From the NCBI GenBank assembly GCA_016186915.1, contig JACPKU010000006.1:249619-313618 (forward strand): a stretch of DNA of 64,000 nt. The letters run 5' to 3'. Under the pieces are notes generated by a model. The model saw only the letters and a program-made list of their open reading frames with translations, was not told where the DNA came from and ran no database searches. Of this stretch, positions 3,529 through 49,654 are shown in pieces. Position 1 is the first letter of the stretch. Every line of letters starts with the position of its first letter. The translations under genes and the position numbers were made by a program. Origin of the DNA: Candidatus Doudnabacteria bacterium. GTDB lineage: Bacteria; Patescibacteriota; Doudnabacteria; UBA920; O2-02-FULL-48-8.

Positions 3529-4079
3529 AACCCAATTTCCTCTGCACTTTCTTTCATCGCGCCGAGCGAAATCTCGACGAGTTCAGGCAGTTCTAAATTA
3601 ATATAGTCTTTGCAAAGCAGGATAATCTCTCTTTTTACCCCGGCGGCGAAACTTTTCTGTTTGAATTTTTTGAGCACCGAATCCGCAGTTACTGATGCTA
3701 ATTTCTTATCCGGCTGTACCAGTGCTACTGCTGTGATCAGCCCTGACAACTCCTCCACACAATATAGGGTTTTTTCTAACAGCGTTTCTGGTTTAATTCC
3801 ATGATCCCAGTTGTGGACGTAAATTGCTTTAATTATTTCTGGCTTCAGATCAGTTTTTTCCAAAATCTCTTTGGTAACCTTAGTATGGTTGTTAAAATCA
3901 TCCTTGGTTTTCTCCCAATCCAAATCGTGCAATAGTCCGGCCAGTCCCCAATCATCCTTATTCCCTCCAAATTTGACGGCCAGCGCTTTCATCATGGCTT
4001 CCACCGCGATCCCGTGCCTGACGAGATTTATATTCTTTATATGTTCGTTTAAAAGATGTAAGGCTTCATTTCTGTTCAT
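3525..4079 (-). CDS. HD-domain phosphohydrolase
   Basis: H...HD motif (GLLHDLDW) and HNWDHG; 184 aa. Confidence 0.55.
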   Translation of the reverse strand: MNRNEALHLLNEHIKNINLVRHGIAVEAMMKALAVKFGGNKDDWGLAGLLHDLDWEKTKDDFNNHTKVTKEILEKTDLKPEIIKAIYVHNWDHGIKPETLLEKTLYCVEELSGLITAVALVQPDKKLASVTADSVLKKFKQKSFAAGVKREIILLCKDYINLELPELVEISLGAMKESAEEIGL

Positions 4080-4146
4080 ATACTGTTCCTTTTGCTCCCA
4101 ATGGTCCCGTCTAAAAGCGGGAAATCGACCGAAAAAAGTATCCGAG

Positions 4147-5604
4147 CTACCCCTCTTTCATTGGCGGGAAAATTACAGTCTCGCGCATTGCCTTGTTCAT
4201 GAGCACCGCAAACAGCCGCTCGCTTACCCCGAATCCCACAGCTGGTGGCATGCCATATTCCAACGCCTCGACATAATCCTCATCCATCATTTGCGCTTCC
4301 TTGTCTCCTGCTTCGCGCAGTTTCATCTGCTGCTCAAACCTGGCTTTTTGATCCAGAGGATCGTTCAATTCGGAAAATCCATTGCCCAACTCAGTGCCTG
4401 CTGCCAGAGGTTGAAAACGCAAAACTTTGTTTGAACTCTTAGGGTCGCGTTTAGCCAAAGGCGTGGTTTCAATCGGGTGTCCGACTAAGAAACAAGGCTG
4501 AATCAATTTCGGCCGCACAACTTTTTTATAAATCGCATCAATCAACTTGCCCTTGCCAAGTTTGTCAATACCGCCGATTCCTAACTCTCTTGCCTTTTTA
4601 CGAAGATCACCTTCGTCATTTTTATCTAAATCTAAACCAGTATATTTCTTAAATACTGTAAAGTATTGAAGTTTTTGCCACTTGCCGCCCCAATTAATTT
4701 TCTGCCCTTCGTATTCGGTTTCCATACTACCAATCACAGCCATCACCACTTTTTTAAATAATTTCTCCACCAACTTCATGCCATCCTGATAATCAGCGTA
4801 AGCCCAGTAAAATTCCATGTCATCATATTCTTGCAAGTGTTCGCGATCAATACCTTCGTTGCGAAACAGCCTGCCGACTTCAAAAACTTTTTCGAAACCG
4901 CCAACCAGCAATCTTTTAAGCGGCAATTCCAAAGAAATGCGCAAATAAAAATCGCGATCCAATTTATTGTGATGCGTAACAAACGGCTCCGCGTCCGCGC
5001 CTCCAGGGATGTTTTCCAAAACAGGCGTCCAGACTTCCAAGAAGCCTTGCTTGATCATGAAATTTCGGATGGTTTGCCAAAACACGGCCTTCTTTCGAAA
5101 CAACTCTTTCGTTTCCGGATTAACTAATAAATCTAAATATCGTTTGCGCAGCCTGGTTTCCACATCCTTCAAGCCAAAAAAATCCGAAGGGATGGGACGG
5201 ATAGATTTAGTGAGTAGTTTGTAGTTTGTAGTGAGTAGAGACTTTTCTCCGGAATTGGACAAACCAAGCGTACCAGTTGCCTCCAAAAAATCACCGATAT
5301 CCAACAACGACAAATTTTTATACTGGTCCGCACCCAAACCGTCTTCCTTTAAAATCAACTGGATAGCCCCGCTTTCGTCTTCCAAATTTATGAAAGCCAA
5401 CTTGCCATGTTCGCGCAGCGCCCGAATGCGCCCGACTAATGTCACGTGATCCGTGTTACGTGATCCGTGATCAAAAAGTTCTAAGGCTTGTGCAATGGCG
5501 TGCGTTCGTTCAGTCTTAACCGGATAAGGATCAACCCCTTGTTTTTTTAGTTGTCCTAATTTTTGTATCCGAACTTTCCTAAGTTCTTCTATTTTTTCTG
5601 ACAT
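4147..5604 (-). CDS. lysS: lysyl-tRNA synthetase (class II)
   Basis: N-terminal OB-fold anticodon-binding domain plus class II catalytic core; 485 aa. Confidence 0.9.
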   Translation of the reverse strand: MSEKIEELRKVRIQKLGQLKKQGVDPYPVKTERTHAIAQALELFDHGSRNTDHVTLVGRIRALREHGKLAFINLEDESGAIQLILKEDGLGADQYKNLSLLDIGDFLEATGTLGLSNSGEKSLLTTNYKLLTKSIRPIPSDFFGLKDVETRLRKRYLDLLVNPETKELFRKKAVFWQTIRNFMIKQGFLEVWTPVLENIPGGADAEPFVTHHNKLDRDFYLRISLELPLKRLLVGGFEKVFEVGRLFRNEGIDREHLQEYDDMEFYWAYADYQDGMKLVEKLFKKVVMAVIGSMETEYEGQKINWGGKWQKLQYFTVFKKYTGLDLDKNDEGDLRKKARELGIGGIDKLGKGKLIDAIYKKVVRPKLIQPCFLVGHPIETTPLAKRDPKSSNKVLRFQPLAAGTELGNGFSELNDPLDQKARFEQQMKLREAGDKEAQMMDEDYVEALEYGMPPAVGFGVSERLFAVLMNKAMRETVIFPPMKEG

Positions 5605-5741
5605 AATTCCTGATGCATATTACTTGGCTTTAATTATACCATAAATCTTCAGTATCACCAAAAAAACGAGATAATATTAATATAAAAGATAATAATATGT
5701 GGCGCTATTGATGTTGATGTTAGTTGATGTTATTTTAGAAT

Positions 5742-5768
5742 ACAATTATCCCGATCGGGATTTTTATA
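5742..5768. repeat. 27-bp direct repeat DR-A1 (ACAATTATCCCGATCGGGATTTTTATA) with 14-bp perfect palindrome core ATCCCGATCGGGAT
   Basis: Identical copy at 6357-6383; lies 6 nt downstream of the stop of gene 5775..6353. Confidence 0.9.
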
Positions 5769-5774
5769 ATCGGA

Positions 5775-6353
5775 CTAAACCTTTCTGAGGTTAAATTTTT
5801 CTAATAAATCCTTTTGAATATCAATGTTTTCAGCTATAATCATTCTGACAAATGATCTGACTTCATAAATCTCCTTTAAGAAATCGAGCTCGTCTTCGCA
5901 GGGATAAGGGTACACCCAAACACTCTTTTGAATGGAGGTGAATCCAAGTTCTTTCAGCTTACCTCTAAAAAATTTTCTTGCTGCGCTAAATTTCTCTGGA
6001 ACGTCAAAAATAACCACCCTCCACTTACCATCCCATCGCCTTGGCTTACTTATCACCATTTCATCTAAATTATAACTTAAAAGTCTTTGATGACCATTTT
6101 TTGTTACCTCAACTATTGTTTTTCCCGCATGATTGGACACAGAGATCAGATTCTGCTTTTCAAGATTTCGGAAAGATTGTTCAATTTGCCGGCGATTATA
6201 TTTCTTGAGTCTCTGAAATTCAAATTTACCTAAGCCAAGTTCTTCTGAAAAAATCATTACGCCTAAGGGGCCAGCAACCGGAATAGCTAACATCCCGGCC
6301 GTTGCCACTATTTTTAATATCGTCTTGGCGATTTCTGACCTTTTGGCCTTCAT
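5775..6353 (-). CDS. protein with hydrophobic N-terminus, winged-helix-like middle and Cas2/VapD-like C-terminal domain (paralog A)
   Basis: N-terminal hydrophobic helix ILKIVATAGMLAIPVAGPLGVMIF. C-terminal KWRVVIFDVPEK...GKLKELGFTSIQKSVWVYPY fits the Cas2 beta1-Asp pattern and the R..L...G..vQ.SVF pattern. About 45% identical to ORF 13662..14228. Confidence 0.55.
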   Translation of the reverse strand: MKAKRSEIAKTILKIVATAGMLAIPVAGPLGVMIFSEELGLGKFEFQRLKKYNRRQIEQSFRNLEKQNLISVSNHAGKTIVEVTKNGHQRLLSYNLDEMVISKPRRWDGKWRVVIFDVPEKFSAARKFFRGKLKELGFTSIQKSVWVYPYPCEDELDFLKEIYEVRSFVRMIIAENIDIQKDLLEKFNLRKV

Positions 6354-6356
6354 ATT

Positions 6357-6383
6357 ACAATTATCCCGATCGGGATTTTTATA
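6357..6383. repeat. 27-bp direct repeat DR-A2, identical to DR-A1
   Basis: Lies 3 nt upstream of the ATG of gene 5775..6353. On the minus strand it reads TATAAAAATCCCGATCGGGATAATTGT aat ATG. Confidence 0.9.
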
Positions 6384-6389
6384 TTATAG

Positions 6390-6416
6390 ATCGCTGTACA
6401 AGCGATCTATAAATCT
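6390..6416. terminator. 11-bp-stem hairpin TATAGATCGCT-GTACA-AGCGATCTATA downstream of greA
   Basis: Perfect stem seen in the sequence. It sits between the greA stop and DR-A2, and T/A runs flank it. Confidence 0.4.
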
Positions 6417-6436: not shown

Positions 6437-6898
6437 TCACTCTATCGACACCACTTCATATTCGGTTTCGCCCATGGGGGTTTTCACGCTGACCTTGCTG
6501 CCATTTTTCGCGCCCAACAAAGATTTGCCAACCAGAGATTCGTTGGAGATGCGCCCCGCCGCGGGATTGGCTTCGTTCGATCCAACGATTGTATATTTTA
6601 CTTTTGTACCGTTGGTCTGTAATACCACCGTACAACCGATGGTGACTTCTTCACGGTTCTTATCGTGAGTAATCAGTTCTGCGTTTTTTATCATTTCCTC
6701 CAGCTCCTTGATTCTGCCCTCGATAAATGACTGCTCTTCCTTCGCCTGCGCGTAGTCCGCATTCTCGGATAAATCTCCATGCGAAACAGCTTCCTGAATT
6801 CTCTCAATCACTTCTTTGCGCCGTTCATCTTTAAGGATGCGCAACTCATCCTTTAATTTTTTTAGCCCGTCTTCGGTTAACAATACTTTTTTTTGCAT
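6437..6898 (-). CDS. greA: transcription elongation factor GreA
   Basis: Coiled-coil N-terminus plus FKBP-like C-terminus; 153 aa. Confidence 0.9.
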   Translation of the reverse strand: MQKKVLLTEDGLKKLKDELRILKDERRKEVIERIQEAVSHGDLSENADYAQAKEEQSFIEGRIKELEEMIKNAELITHDKNREEVTIGCTVVLQTNGTKVKYTIVGSNEANPAAGRISNESLVGKSLLGAKNGSKVSVKTPMGETEYEVVSIE

Positions 6899-11986: not shown

Positions 11987-13225
11987 TTATAAGCTCTCGG
12001 AAAGATCCTTTATTTTTACTAATTTTGTTTTATCGCTTCCTCGTTGTTTGGTTTCGACCGAGTCAGACTGCAATGTCTTATCAGAAACCAATACGCGGGT
12101 GGGGATCCCGATCAAATCGCTATCTGCAAATTTACTCCCTGCGCTTACTTCTCTCTCATCGTATAGTACCTGAGTGTTCGTCTCAAGTAAAGCTTTGTAT
12201 ATTTTGTCCGCGGGTGTTTGATTTTTCGAGATATTGATAAGATGGATATCGAAAGGAGCAATGGCCTTCGGCCAGATCATCCCTTGCTCATCATGACTGA
12301 CTTCCACCACCGCTCCCATAAGCCTGCCCAGACCAATACCGTAACTGCCCATAATCACCGGCTGTTCCCTGCCTGTCTCGTCTTTTACTGTAAGACCCAA
12401 GGCTTGGGAATACTTAGTTCCCAGTGGAAAAATATTCCCCACTTCAATGGCTTTCTTTTCTTTAAGCTTGGTTTTATCTAAGCCCAGCTTTTTTAAATTT
12501 TCTTCGGTATAGACTTCTTTATTTATGGCCAGCTTCTTTTTTTCATCGACATAAATTACGTCCTCGCCCGAGTCAGTAACAGTCTGAAACTCGTCGGTAA
12601 GCCCGGTAGTAAAAGATCCGCCCGCGGCGGCGGTGCGAAATGTTCTATCCCCCAAACCCACGCGCTCGAAAATTTTAAGATAGGCGCCGGCGCACAATTC
12701 ATAAAATTCCCTAAATTCTTTTTGGGTTTTACTGAAGGAATAAAGATCCTTCATCAAAAACTCTCGGCCTCTTAAAATCCCGCTTTTGGCGCGCAACTCA
12801 TTTCTAAATTTCGTTTGAAATTGGTAAATATAGATCGGTAAATCTTTATAGGAACTTACATAATGGGTAAGCAAAAAAGTAAGCGGCTCTTCATGCGTAT
12901 TGGCAATGCCGACGTCTGAGCCGTTGGCTAACTTGGTCTTAAACCAATTATCCACCAGCTTGTCGTCCCACCGGTTGGTTTTTCCCCAAACCTCCTTATC
13001 CTGCAGCGTGGTCATGAGAACTTCCTGTCCGCCGATCGCATTCATTTCTTCTCGGATGATCTGTTCAATTTTTTTCAACACCATCAAGCCAAGCGGCAAG
13101 TACTCGTACACGCCAGCCATCACTTTATGGATAAAGCCGGCGCGCGTCAAAAGCCGGGCATTGGTGGCCACTTCGTCCTTTGGCGCTTGTTTTAAAACTT
13201 TGGTAAATAATTGCGACTGCTTCAT
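11987..13225 (-). CDS. proS: prolyl-tRNA synthetase
   Basis: Class II core with LLTRAGFIHKVMAGVYEYLPLG; 412 aa. Confidence 0.8.
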   Translation of the reverse strand: MKQSQLFTKVLKQAPKDEVATNARLLTRAGFIHKVMAGVYEYLPLGLMVLKKIEQIIREEMNAIGGQEVLMTTLQDKEVWGKTNRWDDKLVDNWFKTKLANGSDVGIANTHEEPLTFLLTHYVSSYKDLPIYIYQFQTKFRNELRAKSGILRGREFLMKDLYSFSKTQKEFREFYELCAGAYLKIFERVGLGDRTFRTAAAGGSFTTGLTDEFQTVTDSGEDVIYVDEKKKLAINKEVYTEENLKKLGLDKTKLKEKKAIEVGNIFPLGTKYSQALGLTVKDETGREQPVIMGSYGIGLGRLMGAVVEVSHDEQGMIWPKAIAPFDIHLINISKNQTPADKIYKALLETNTQVLYDEREVSAGSKFADSDLIGIPTRVLVSDKTLQSDSVETKQRGSDKTKLVKIKDLSESL

Positions 13226-13277
13226 TTGCTTTATTTCAGAGATGAAATATTAATATCTCAATCTATTATACCTTCTC

Positions 13278-13305
13278 TTGACAAAATGCGCAAAAAAAGT
13301 ATTAT
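13278..13305 (+). promoter_or_regulatory. sigma70-like promoter TTGACA-N16-TATTAT
   Basis: -35 at 13278-13283 and -10 at 13300-13305. Confidence 0.5.
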
Positions 13306-13311
13306 ATTATT

Positions 13312-13556
13312 TTAAAGCTGGCACCGACCACCCTACCAGCGAAGTGGCAGAGTGCTTTGCTTGCGAAGCGCAGCAAGAGCGCGAGGCAGCGGCCAGATTC
13401 ACTGAGGCGGCATTGGATGTAGACCAAGCTGTTCGGCAACGAGCAGGTGAAATGCCCAGCGATGCAATGGAACGGACGCAAGAGCGCGATCCGTAGCTAC
13501 GAAAACCCGGGGAGCGTAAAGATTTTATATCCTTCGCTCCCCACACCCTTTTTTTC
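13312..13556 (+). ncRNA. candidate GC-rich sRNA (about 245 nt) with its own promoter and intrinsic terminator; identity unknown
   Basis: About 58% GC against about 42% background. Terminator GGGGAGCG-loop-CGCTCCCC plus T7 at 13509-13555. Internal repeat GCAAGAGCGCGA occurs twice. The overlapping 72-aa ORF has no RBS and its ATG lies within the -35. Confidence 0.4.
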
Positions 13557-13627
13557 TAAAGGACTTTTTTTATTTTTTTATTTTAAAGCTCCCCTGCAAC
13601 CACGCTCAGCCCTCTTGATCTTTTCAC

Positions 13628-13648
13628 GCGATCGCTGAAAAAGGTCAA
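13628..13648. repeat. direct repeat DR-B1 GCGATCGCTGAAAAAGGTCAA (GCGATCGC palindromic core)
   Basis: 18/21 identity with 14294-14314; lies 13 nt downstream of the stop of gene 13662..14228. Confidence 0.8.
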
Positions 13649-13661
13649 CAGATCCAGTGAC

Positions 13662-14228
13662 TCAAAGCTCAAATAACCTAACTAAGTCCTTTTGAATATC
13701 AATCTTTTGCACTGTCAATATTCTAATATAGGATCTCACTTCATAAAGCTCACCGATAAAATCAACTTCATCTTCACAGGAATAGGGATAAATCCAAACA
13801 CTTTTCTGCAATTTATAAAACCCTAGCTCTTTTAGTTTATTACGCAGACACTCCCTCCCCATCTTATATTTTTCGGGAATATCAAAAATTACCACACGCC
13901 ATTTACGATCCCATTTCCAGGGCTTTTTGATTCGCATGTCTTCAAGTTTGTATTTCAATACTTTATTTTGTCCGTTCTTTGTAAGTCCTACCACGGTTGT
14001 GTCACCATTTTGTGATACGCCAATCAATCTTTGCTTCTCTATTCTCCTTAAAGAATCATAGACCTTCCGTCTGCCCACTCTTGGGAGACCAAGTTCGTCG
14101 GCAATCACCATAAATGTCAATGGCCCTGCAACAGGAATTGCCAACACTCCGGCTGCGGCGAGAGTTAGCAAGACGGTTTTAGTGATCTTTAGTCTTCGTT
14201 TTGTTTTTTCAGTGTTCAATTTCTTCAT
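13662..14228 (-). CDS. protein with hydrophobic N-terminus, winged-helix-like middle and Cas2/VapD-like C-terminal domain (paralog B)
   Basis: Same architecture as 5775..6353. WRVVIFDIPEKY...NKLKELGFYKLQKSVWIYPYSCEDEVDF. Confidence 0.55.
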   Translation of the reverse strand: MKKLNTEKTKRRLKITKTVLLTLAAAGVLAIPVAGPLTFMVIADELGLPRVGRRKVYDSLRRIEKQRLIGVSQNGDTTVVGLTKNGQNKVLKYKLEDMRIKKPWKWDRKWRVVIFDIPEKYKMGRECLRNKLKELGFYKLQKSVWIYPYSCEDEVDFIGELYEVRSYIRILTVQKIDIQKDLVRLFEL

Positions 14229-14293
14229 AGTTCAATTTCTTCATAATCTTCGGGTAACTTTATCTCCGGATTACTTTTATTGATCATTTACTG

Positions 14294-14314
14294 CGATCGC
14301 TTAAAATAGTCAAT
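14294..14314. repeat. direct repeat DR-B2 GCGATCGCTTAAAATAGTCAA
   Basis: Lies about 65 nt upstream of the start of gene 13662..14228. Confidence 0.8.
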
Positions 14315-24446: not shown

Positions 24447-24476
24447 ACGTAAAATGCGCGGCCGCGCATTTTACGT
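24447..24476. terminator. 30-bp perfect palindrome ACGTAAAATGCGCGGCCGCGCATTTTACGT between convergent genes
   Basis: Seen in the sequence; a likely bidirectional terminator for ORF 23189 (+) and rnhA (-). Confidence 0.55.
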
Positions 24477-36740: not shown

Positions 36741-36754
36741 ATCCCTTTTCTCCA

Positions 36755-36782
36755 CATTCATACACGACTGTATGAATGTATT
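36755..36782. repeat. 28-bp perfect palindrome CATTCATACA-CGAC-TGTATGAATG(TATT), copy 2
   Basis: Identical copies at 1-28, 37283-37310 and 49569-49595. Its last T plus the next A form the stop codon of the YerC-like gene. Confidence 0.9.
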
Positions 36783-37272
36783 AACCTTCTAAGGTTCTTT
36801 TTGCAGAACGTTGTTTCAGTTTCTTTCTGATAAAACGGTTTGCCGCTGGAACTCCTTCGGTGACTAAATTTGCCAAAAATGTTTCGGCCGGAGCTTTTCG
36901 GCGCACCCTTCTTTCTAAAATTGCTTGTCTTTCTTCGCGCTTCCCTTGGTATTTATGTTCCAGATCTTGTAACTTAGAGTGTACCTTTCTCAATCCATCG
37001 CCATGAATCACGAGAATATTACTGACATTATTAATAGTTCTGGAAGTAACCCTCAAAGCATTTATTATTTCTTCATAGGTTTGACCTTGAAGTAGTCGTC
37101 GCGCAATTTCTAATCTTTTAGCGAACATTTTGTATTCCGTATGTGTAAACAAATCTTTAAACAGCAACCTGATATCCTCCTTAGAATCCATCAGAGTAAA
37201 TGCGGCCCATAAATTGTTCACATAGTGACCAAAATGCTCGGGATCTAAATGTAGTCTTGAAAGTTTTGTCAT
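36781..37272 (-). CDS. YerC/YecD (TrpR-like) family HTH protein with basic C-terminal tail
   Basis: LFTHTEYKMFAKRLEIARRLLQGQTYEEIINALRVTSRTINNVSNILVIHGDG matches the YerC pattern. Likely start is MTKLS. Confidence 0.6.
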   Translation of the reverse strand: MTKLSRLHLDPEHFGHYVNNLWAAFTLMDSKEDIRLLFKDLFTHTEYKMFAKRLEIARRLLQGQTYEEIINALRVTSRTINNVSNILVIHGDGLRKVHSKLQDLEHKYQGKREERQAILERRVRRKAPAETFLANLVTEGVPAANRFIRKKLKQRSAKRTLEG

Positions 37273-37282
37273 TTTTTTTTCA

Positions 37283-37310
37283 CATTCATACACGACTGTA
37301 TGAATGTATT
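37283..37310. repeat. 28-bp perfect palindrome, copy 3, about 10 nt upstream of the YerC-like start
   Basis: Seen in the sequence. Confidence 0.9.
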
Positions 37311-49397: not shown

Positions 49398-49568
49398 CCG
49401 ACGGGTGGTCTTCGGCGGTGAGTGAGGTTCTGACAAAGAATCTCACTCATTTTTTTTAAAATATATCTCCTTACAACCCCCAGCGAGGGTTTTGGTTTAC
49501 CCGCCGGACTTTCGGGTGCCGATCATTCGACCGGACAAGTGTCTCGAAACGAGACTCGGACTTACATA

Positions 49569-49595
49569 CATTCATACACGACTGTATGAATGTAT
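49569..49595. repeat. 28-bp palindrome, copy 4 (27/28), intergenic
   Basis: Seen in the sequence; about 60 bp upstream of the -35 of ORF 49690. Confidence 0.9.
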
Positions 49596-49654
49596 GGCAA
49601 ATCCCAACCCCCATATTTGCAGGCAACACAAGCAACAATACACAATACTTCTTT

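Follow-up and report, generated by a model that had tools for sequence, protein, structure and literature searches.

A mini-PaaX gene of Candidatus Doudnabacteria is bracketed by two 36-bp palindromic sites and probably forms an autoregulatory cassette

We analyzed a stretch of 64,000 nucleotides (the window) from the metagenome-assembled genome (MAG) of an uncultivated groundwater bacterium, Candidatus Doudnabacteria (contig JACPKU010000006.1, positions 249,619 to 313,618), which contains a 640-bp unit composed of a single gene between two copies of a repeat. All copy searches of this genome cover the 64-kb window. The open reading frame (ORF; 5775..6353, minus strand) encodes a protein of 192 amino acids, here named mini-PaaX, and lies between greA (6437..6898, minus strand) and lysS (4147..5604, minus strand), both assigned by Pfam. 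The 27-mer ACAATTATCCCGATCGGGATTTTTATA occurs exactly twice, on the same strand, at 5742-5768 and 6357-6383. The ATG is located 3 nt past one copy and the stop codon 6 nt ahead of the other, and this arrangement, which had been described in a sequence-only reading of the stretch, was confirmed by a search of the window and by the ORF call. The same reading had suggested a search for more repeat copies; allowing up to three mismatches, no third copy was detected in the window (0 in 100 shuffles). The identity between the two copies in fact extends over 28 nt (5741-5768 and 6356-6383), and their 14-bp core ATCCCGATCGGGAT (5748-5761 and 6363-6376) is a perfect palindrome, as had been stated. The same protein is found in NCBI as HYW51_02785 on a 420-kb contig, where it is annotated as a shorter form beginning at M21, although residues 1-20 of the 192-amino-acid protein are conserved in homologs. 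Identical copies of the cassette locus are present in six Logan assemblies.

The protein is a "mini-PaaX" that consists of a winged helix-turn-helix (wHTH) domain and the Cas2-like domain PaaX_M, with no C-terminal domain. Pfam assigns the "PaaX central Cas2-like domain" (PF20803) with an E value of 8e-22 and 77.6 bits against a cutoff of 24, while the PaaX_C domain gave no match in Pfam and the protein stops at residue 192. The score for the PaaX equivalog TIGR02277 was 29 bits compared with a cutoff of 264.6. Cas2 profiles from NCBIfam and PADLOC match residues 109-156 (E values of 1e-5 to 1e-3), a match that rests on the N-terminal motif V-I-F-D ... Q-K-S-V-W of the Cas2-like domain, and the score for the Cas2 model TIGR01573 (18.8) lies under its cutoff of 24.5. 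An AlphaFold2 model built with 39 homologs (predicted local distance difference test score, pLDDT, 84.7) displays a winged helix with helices at residues 43-50 and 54-66 and a beta-hairpin wing at 70-83; the domain that comes next has the order beta-alpha-beta-beta-alpha-beta (strands 111-116, 139-142, 145-148 and 169-174, helices 120-135 and 153-162). The best fold match of this model in the PDB is E. coli PaaX (8a39, E value 1.4e-5), followed by 3l09 and 3kfw, and the single-domain matches are Cas2 and wHTH proteins of the PadR/MarR type. A profile alignment onto E. coli PaaX covers residues 52-114 and begins at residue 53 of the protein. When the PDB was searched by sequence with just the Cas2-like domain, the matches were confined to chance hits on CheY. 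The earlier guess of a wHTH followed by a Cas2-like domain thus holds by PF20803, the model and the fold matches. The hydrophobic N-terminus that had been pointed out is also present, but it gives no argument for a membrane anchor; residues 2-38 are modelled, with lower confidence, as the first helices before the winged helix, and an anchor in this segment is therefore unsupported.

In the 39 sequences of the family that were compared, W107, D108, R112, D117, R126, R130, Q142 and S144 are invariant, and D117 comes right after strand beta1. The metal-binding Asp of Cas2 is located after beta1, and by its position D117 would be the counterpart of this metal-binding/catalytic residue. A known defense system was rejected as an assignment, the Cas2 profile matches being only partial. 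A phage origin was likewise rejected, since 2.9 million viral contigs yielded a single weak relative and PHROG gave no meaningful match. No CRISPR array, regularly spaced repeats or tRNA integration target was found in the window. Cas1 is not among the 25 most frequent downstream-neighbor families listed, and paa genes are not among the 25 most frequent neighbor families listed for 77 loci; in the window, the neighbors are greA and lysS. Relatives of about 180-220 amino acids are common in the Candidate Phyla Radiation (CPR)/Patescibacteria: both collections that were searched returned more than 590 matches, and at least nine MAGs represented in the top 80 genome loci contain two or three paralogs each.

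The bracketing of the gene was assessed across this family by comparing, for each locus, the 220 nt that precede the start codon with the 220 nt that follow the stop codon and taking the best match without gaps. The upstream region of one locus paired with the downstream region of another served as the null. For 80 genome loci, the mean match was 18.8 compared with 9.0 for the null; 58 of the 80 exceeded the 95th percentile of the null and 18 exceeded its maximum. Similar values were obtained for 75 metagenome loci, about 10 of which duplicate genome loci (mean match 19.8 versus 8.9, with 59 of 75 above the 95th percentile). Start codons and neighboring ORFs of the 160 loci were assigned by simple scripts. 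Taken together, tight bracketing by two locus-specific palindromes was observed in about 55-75% of some 150 CPR relatives. No published description of the mini-PaaX family, or of a gene bracketed in this way, was found in the literature, in agreement with the earlier remark that no element with this organization had been described; the organization itself, however, recurs in most of the relatives.

Alignment of 88 paired loci on the palindrome center showed that the conserved element is 36 bp long, since both the complementarity and the identity between the upstream site (U) and the downstream site (D) fall to background past position 18. The core follows the pattern GCnn|nnGC, in which conservation reaches 96-98% for the inner pair (C at -3, G at +3) and about 80% for the outer pair (G at -4, C at +4); examples from different loci are GCATATGC, GCCATGGC, GCGATCGC, GCTATAGC, GCAATTGC and GCGGCCGC. 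The spacer (positions 5-8 on each side) is AT-rich and only 51-69% complementary. The arms (positions 9-18) vary in sequence from locus to locus but show 76-94% self-complementarity, and their identity between U and D is 70-90%. Paralogs within one genome have differing arms, both in the window and in several MAGs. A scan of 747 kb with a generic form of this motif returned 105 sites, 91 of which lie within 200 nt of an end of a mini-PaaX gene, compared with none in block-shuffled sequence, and for most loci exactly two sites are present in 6.5 kb. The invariance of the -3/+3 C/G pair across very different arms points to sequence-specific recognition.

In the window, U spans 6352..6387 (center between 6369 and 6370) and includes the repeat 6357-6383 and the core 6363-6376, with its right edge abutting the ATG. 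D spans 5737..5772 (center between 5754 and 5755), includes the repeat 5742-5768 and begins 2 nt past the stop codon. Both conform to the family layout; their core is CCGA|TCGG and their arms are shorter. The direct repeat noticed at the outset corresponds to the middle 28 bp of a palindromic site of 36 bp, which, judged from the compared loci, moves with the gene.

The position of the two sites relative to the gene is also constrained. The distance from the center of U to the start codon peaks at 16-30 nt and that from the stop codon to the center of D at 18-30 nt, so that the 36-bp sites abut the coding sequence at both ends. Hexamers resembling a -10 element were found in 49 of 83 U copies compared with 28 of 83 D copies (p = 0.002); where the right half of U carries, for example, TGCTAGAAT or GCTATAAT, the D copy of the same locus has TGCGGAAAT or GCTAAA. 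In the window, the -10-like hexamer GATAAT (6360..6365, minus strand), a putative promoter element read from the sequence, occupies positions +5 to +10 of U, 6 nt ahead of the ATG, which starts at +17. The same register holds TAGAAT or TATAAT in the U sites of relatives, and L007, from another Doudnabacteria genome, reads TCGC-TATAAT-N6-ATG. The TATAAT that had been reported upstream of the gene is present as well (6383-6388, minus strand), and GATAAT inside the repeat is a second candidate hexamer. The geometry of U predicts that transcription from this -10 element, with the start codon following soon after, would give an mRNA with little or no leader.

D, on the other hand, is anchored to the stop codon of the cassette and not to the next gene. 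It is as frequent when the downstream gene is convergent (16 of 29) as when it is co-directional (26 of 48), it lies 50-500 nt from the next start codon, and the downstream neighbors of 77 loci belong to 115 Pfam families. In the window, the extended -10 element of lysS, TGGTATAAT (5633..5641, minus strand), lies about 100 nt downstream of D and is conserved in relatives that lack the cassette, indicating that lysS keeps its own promoter. The earlier reading had noted the downstream copy in the upstream region of lysS; it belongs with the stop codon of the cassette instead. No enrichment of T was observed after D (a mean of 3.9 T in the 10 positions +19 to +28, compared with 3.5 for U). A loose terminator-like scan flagged both window copies with a 5-bp stem, D on both strands, and window D as RNA showed a modest fold (-11.3 kcal/mol, z -1.8).

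Between the greA stop codon and U lies a 29-bp perfect hairpin, TTATAGATCGCT-gtaca-AGCGATCTATAA (6384..6412), an inverted repeat that contains the TATAAT at 6383-6388. It is probably a greA 3' hairpin or a putative cassette boundary. Folded jointly with U it reaches -23.3 kcal/mol (z -4.8), and it is not followed by a T-run.

The neighborhood of greA and lysS was compared in four Doudnabacteria contigs representing three distinct relatives, which share the order mreC-PBP2-DUF1003-greA ... lysS-HD-Ham1-serS. In two of them (L092 and L094), greA adjoins lysS, the spacers measure 258 and 93 nt, and no cassette or palindrome of the mini-PaaX type is found in either. In L090 and L091, which carry an identical GreA, 2.8 kb of other genes but no mini-PaaX gene are found in this place. 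The comparison supports the suspicion of an inserted or variable module, with two syntenic relatives empty and a third containing other genes. The window protein has its closest homologs, at 57% and 54% identity, in another setting, behind an S11 peptidase gene, and these genes are bracketed as well. Two contigs of one Moraniibacteriota MAG (L023 and L026) are 97% identical over 788 nt with unrelated flanks, and the shared block extends from 14-18 nt outside U to 4 nt outside D, with no target-site duplication visible at its junctions. Homology limited to the cassette was also found in the pairs L116/L138 and L111/L137. Both window mini-PaaX genes, that described above and a paralog introduced below, have a lower GC content at third codon positions (GC3; 0.37-0.38) than their neighbors (0.47-0.53). 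The absence of the unit from two related greA-lysS intervals and its occurrence in three pairs with unrelated contexts suggest that it behaves as a discrete, occasionally mobile module, here in a variable spot between greA and lysS. Support for the notion of a mobile element is indirect, and many orthologs are stably syntenic; those of Nomurabacteria, for example, lie upstream of rpoB with flanks that are about 75% identical. An explanation of the repeats as a target-site duplication or att scar was discarded, since the greA-lysS gaps without the cassette contain no such palindrome and since, in L023/L026, the gene is accompanied by both copies.

Several further features were seen at these loci. 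A solo 40-bp palindrome, CTGTCCAATTTGGTGTCCGA|TCGGACACGAGATTGGACAG with the core CCGATCGG, is located directly after greA in L090 (3992-4031) and also in L091; it could be an orphan operator or the leftover of a lost cassette. The empty spacer of L092 contains an inverted repeat, CGCTCGCGATTGAATTGCAAAACTA ... TAGTTTTGCAACAATCGCTCGC (3963-4100), around an inner segment of about 75 nt, which by its sequence appears to be an element resembling a miniature inverted-repeat transposable element, or a structured element, unrelated to the cassette. In L111/L137, a 38-nt non-palindromic direct repeat, TCGGCAAAACCAAAACCAGCTACTACAAATTAGCTTC, with variants, is found outside both palindromes and marks exactly where the homology of the pair begins and ends, in the manner of attL/attR sites of a slightly larger unit. 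The D palindrome of L138 is split near its center (3575-3646) by a self-complementary, GC-rich insert of about 72 nt that is missing from the 89%-identical cassette of L116 and resembles a small element targeting the palindrome center.

A second type of regulator in the window is flanked in a comparable way. The TrpR/YerC-like gene at 36781..37272 (minus strand) is bracketed by CACATTCATACACGACTGTATGAATGTATT at 37274-37310 and 36746-36782, with more copies of this repeat at 1-38 and 49560-49606, and the bracketing recurs in three other Doudnabacteria (L176-L178) with differing neighborhoods. The repeat unit includes a -10 box, and its downstream copy is placed just ahead of the next gene, whereas D of mini-PaaX is tied to its own stop codon whatever comes next. 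By its layout, the TrpR/YerC-like case looks like an ordinary small regulon. That this gene is bracketed too indicates that bracketing needs no Cas2-like domain and is not unique to mini-PaaX. The GC3 values of the three small regulators of the window (5775-6353, 13662-14228 and 36781-37272) are 0.32-0.38, compared with 0.46-0.53 for their housekeeping neighbors.

The PaaX-type fold, the alike arms of U and D, the differing arms of paralogs and the near-exclusive association of the motif with mini-PaaX genes lead us to read the 36-bp palindromes as, most likely, binding sites of the encoded protein. In our view, the 640-bp unit is probably a self-contained cassette in which the mini-PaaX gene is autoregulated and its product has two operators. 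By analogy to PaaX, a mini-PaaX dimer formed via the Cas2-like dimerization domain would bind the 36-bp palindrome. U would overlap the promoter of the gene, with the -10 element in its right half and the start codon a few bases on, and protein bound to U would shut off transcription of its own gene. The family-wide pattern supports the earlier proposal that the palindrome is an operator located at the promoter of the cassette gene. D is most likely bound by the same protein too, and may serve in looping for stronger autorepression, as a roadblock, or as a 3' boundary that insulates the unit from neighboring transcription; a second operator, a roadblock or a weak terminator are the roles proposed for the window copy.

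A number of observations count against this autoregulatory interpretation. The only detectable sites flank the regulator's own gene, with no obvious benefit for the host, and about 25-45% of loci have no clear site pair, part of which is due to the automatic assignment of start codons. Covariation between the arms and the wHTH is weak (Spearman 0.17, compared with 0.15 for the Cas2-like domain), and as proof of direct readout it was rejected as weak and unspecific. Window D keeps the same GATAAT as U, which makes the promoter copy and the non-promoter copy indistinguishable here. Moreover, where one arm differs between U and D, the opposite arm tends to show the matching difference: differences in both arms number 114 where 56 would be expected, 59 of the 114 leave both copies symmetric, and L013, L066, L051, L107 and L118 are clear cases. 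This excess suggests that self-complementarity, as a hairpin or cruciform, is selected or generated by mutation, which is unneeded for the simple binding of a dimer. Many sites are perfect palindromes of 36-48 bp, with 18-24 nt per arm and very stable single-strand folds (for the L026 palindrome, -24 kcal/mol, z about -9). These patterns suggest that the formation of hairpins or cruciforms, or repair templated by the palindrome, plays a part. The idea that D alone acts as an RNA hairpin was rejected, as D is not significantly more symmetric than U (14.9 versus 14.5 of 18, p = 0.21).

Rather than an autoregulated repressor, the unit could be a small mobile or selfish cassette whose palindromes are ends for recombination or cleavage, recognized by the wHTH-Cas2-like protein; the protein would drive excision, integration or copying, either by itself or together with a host enzyme that works on the GC core, and autoregulation would be secondary. 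We regard this as unlikely, even though it agrees with the absence of the unit from L092 and L094, the different content of L090/L091, the other context of the closest homologs, the L023/L026 block ending 4-18 nt outside the palindromes, the two further cassette-limited pairs, one of them with the 38-nt direct repeat, and the solo palindrome after greA in L090. The tight bracketing of the gene, its GC3 below that of the neighbors, the invariant D117 at the position of the Cas2 metal-binding Asp and the near absence of sites away from the gene point in the same direction. Many orthologs are nevertheless syntenic, in Nomurabacteria upstream of rpoB and, for the window paralog, after an M50 peptidase gene. 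The single ORF of the unit encodes the wHTH-Cas2-like protein and no recombinase or transposase, the L023/L026 junctions lack a target-site duplication, no dispersed copies of the ends were found in the 64-kb window or at the family loci, only one relative turned up among the 2.9 million viral contigs, and the TrpR-like regulator is bracketed likewise under ordinary regulon logic. That mini-PaaX genes constitute a new class of minimal selfish or mobile CPR units, in which the Cas2-like domain with its invariant Asp has a part in cutting or joining at the GC core, is in our view a little less likely again; autorepression together with insulation would then keep such a unit neutral wherever it lands.

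The stable folds raise the question whether the palindromes act mainly as nucleic-acid hairpins, with U as a 5' stem-loop and D as a 3' terminator or stabilizer, or both as bidirectional terminators, and with the similarity of U and D arising from duplication and gene conversion. The many perfect arms of 18-24 nt, as in L026, the mirrored differences at twice the expectation, the terminator-like flags on the window copies and the presence of a palindrome with A-tract, GC stem and T-tract between convergent genes at 24447-24476 are compatible with such a role. It is made rather improbable by the poor pairing of spacer positions 5-8 between conserved arms and core, which implies a bipartite element and not a continuous stem, by the missing T-run enrichment after D and the weak window hairpin (z -1.8), by the invariant -3/+3 C/G pair across differing arms, and by the near-exclusive occurrence of the motif with the mini-PaaX family, unlike that of a generic terminator. 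Finally, D might be an operator for lysS, and the pair would then reflect a regulon of two promoters, not a property of the cassette. D does lie in the gap ahead of lysS, each of the two mini-PaaX genes of the window is followed by a gene for an aminoacyl-tRNA synthetase (lysS or proS), tRNA synthetases account for about 9 of 77 downstream neighbors, a look-alike that agrees at 20 of 26 positions is found inside lysS at about 4941-4973, and the TrpR-like regulator of the same genome works in this manner. We nonetheless find this very unlikely, as D begins 2 nt past the cassette stop codon and is separated from the conserved lysS promoter downstream by about 100 nt; across the family it lies 18-45 nt from the stop codon but 50-500 nt from the next start codon and is as common with a convergent gene, the downstream neighbors comprise 115 Pfam families, and relatives have the same lysS promoter without any such site.

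The autoregulatory cassette can be compared with several known systems. PaaX is the phenylacetyl-CoA-responsive repressor of the paa operon in E. coli W and Pseudomonas (PDB 8a39, 3l09). According to a review (PMC9493321), the E. coli protein recognizes TGATTC-N27-GAATCA and represses transcription from its own promoter; this sequence is an interrupted palindrome of 39 bp. Mini-PaaX resembles PaaX in its winged helix and Cas2-like PF20803 domain and has PaaX as its best structural match, and the 36-bp palindrome that abuts its start codon, a predicted binding site, is comparable in style to the PaaX operator. In contrast to PaaX, it has 192 amino acids without PaaX_C, no paa genes nearby, a restriction to CPR with several paralogs per genome, and a site with a conserved GC core that is paired around the gene; its Cas2-like domain also retains an Asp after beta1 that does not vary in the family, and is matched by profiles of true Cas2 proteins. 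With Cas2 and VapD it shares the beta-alpha-beta-beta-alpha-beta ferredoxin-like fold, as indicated by the Cas2 profile and the domain-level fold matches, and palindromic direct repeats of about 30-40 bp around a gene recall the repeat-spacer-repeat order of CRISPR arrays. However, the domain is fused to a wHTH, the window contains no cas1, other cas genes or CRISPR array, the "spacer" is the mini-PaaX gene itself, and the repeats vary between paralogs of one genome.

In phage lambda, cI lies between OR and OL, both of which are bound by CI, and looping tunes autoregulation. The mini-PaaX unit, with its two predicted operators, would likewise be an autoregulated repressor unit between two operator regions. 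The lambda regions, though, each have a lytic promoter and three sub-sites, compared with a single 36-bp site per side; a mini-PaaX loop would span 600-800 bp, and D shows no sign of a second promoter. Like the modules at XerC/D pdif sites and integron attC sites, the unit is a single gene with imperfect palindromes of about 28 bp or more and is present or absent between conserved neighbors, but its sites lack the 11-6-11 Xer layout and an asymmetric center, and neither an adjacent integrase nor attI is found. Since the arms track the protein and differ within a genome, one host recombinase could read only the shared GC core. The genes for REP-associated tyrosine transposases (RAYTs), too, are single-copy genes flanked by palindromes that their product presumably recognizes. 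Repetitive extragenic palindromes (REPs), however, are dispersed in tens to hundreds of copies while mini-PaaX sites are essentially confined to the two flanks, and a RAYT is an HUH/Y1 enzyme, not a wHTH-Cas2-like fusion.

The architecture is unexpected, and it recurs reproducibly within the family. CPR/Patescibacteria have tiny genomes with few recognizable regulators, and we know of no transcription factor from these bacteria that has been characterized. As the likely site can be read from the flanks of the gene, the family offers more than 100 natural protein-site pairs of differing specificity, an unusually good data set for deriving a recognition code and for the design of orthogonal repressors. 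The tight bracketing by two sites makes it worth asking whether CPR bacteria use looping, roadblock termination or leaderless promoters. If the cassettes regulate only themselves, they would be a clean case of a selfish regulatory gene. A link between the Cas2-like fold, palindromic repeats and cassette mobility would, if true, be relevant to the origin of CRISPR, and a selfish unit of this kind would represent a Cas1-independent relative of the CRISPR-repeat machinery and bear on how Cas2 met palindromic repeats.

A paralogous mini-PaaX gene (13662..14228, minus strand; 188 amino acids, about 54% identical, PF20803 with an E value of 4.7e-23) is located 8 kb from the first, between an M50 peptidase gene and proS, and is bracketed as well. 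Its U site is ATTGATCATTTACTGCGATCGCTTAAAATAGTCAAT (14279..14314), with the core GCGATCGC, and its D site is CTTGATCTTTTCACGCGATCGCTGAAAAAGGTCAAC (13614..13649). In another Doudnabacteria genome (L088), an ortholog likewise follows the M50 peptidase gene. The start codon of the window paralog is covered by an exact tandem duplication of 16 nt, two copies of GTTCAATTTCTTCATA at 14214-14245; it puts the first ATG out of frame and places the operator 16 nt farther from the working start. Between the D site of the paralog and proS, a GC-rich stretch of about 300 nt without a long ORF (13260-13560) could be an unannotated RNA or a decayed gene; no Rfam match was obtained in the window, including at a relaxed threshold for 13200-13680.

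Two other sequences of the window resemble the cassette palindrome. The look-alike inside lysS, ATAAAAATCGCGATCCAATTTATTGT (4941-4973), is weaker, with 20 of 26 positions in agreement, and may be a chance match or a third site; no hit at its threshold was found in 265 kb of non-cognate loci. The perfect 30-bp palindrome ACGTAAAATGCGCGG|CCGCGCATTTTACGT (24447-24476) occupies the 48-nt gap between two convergent genes and has the look of a bidirectional terminator, yet it displays the mini-PaaX layout of a GC core, an AT spacer and outer arms.

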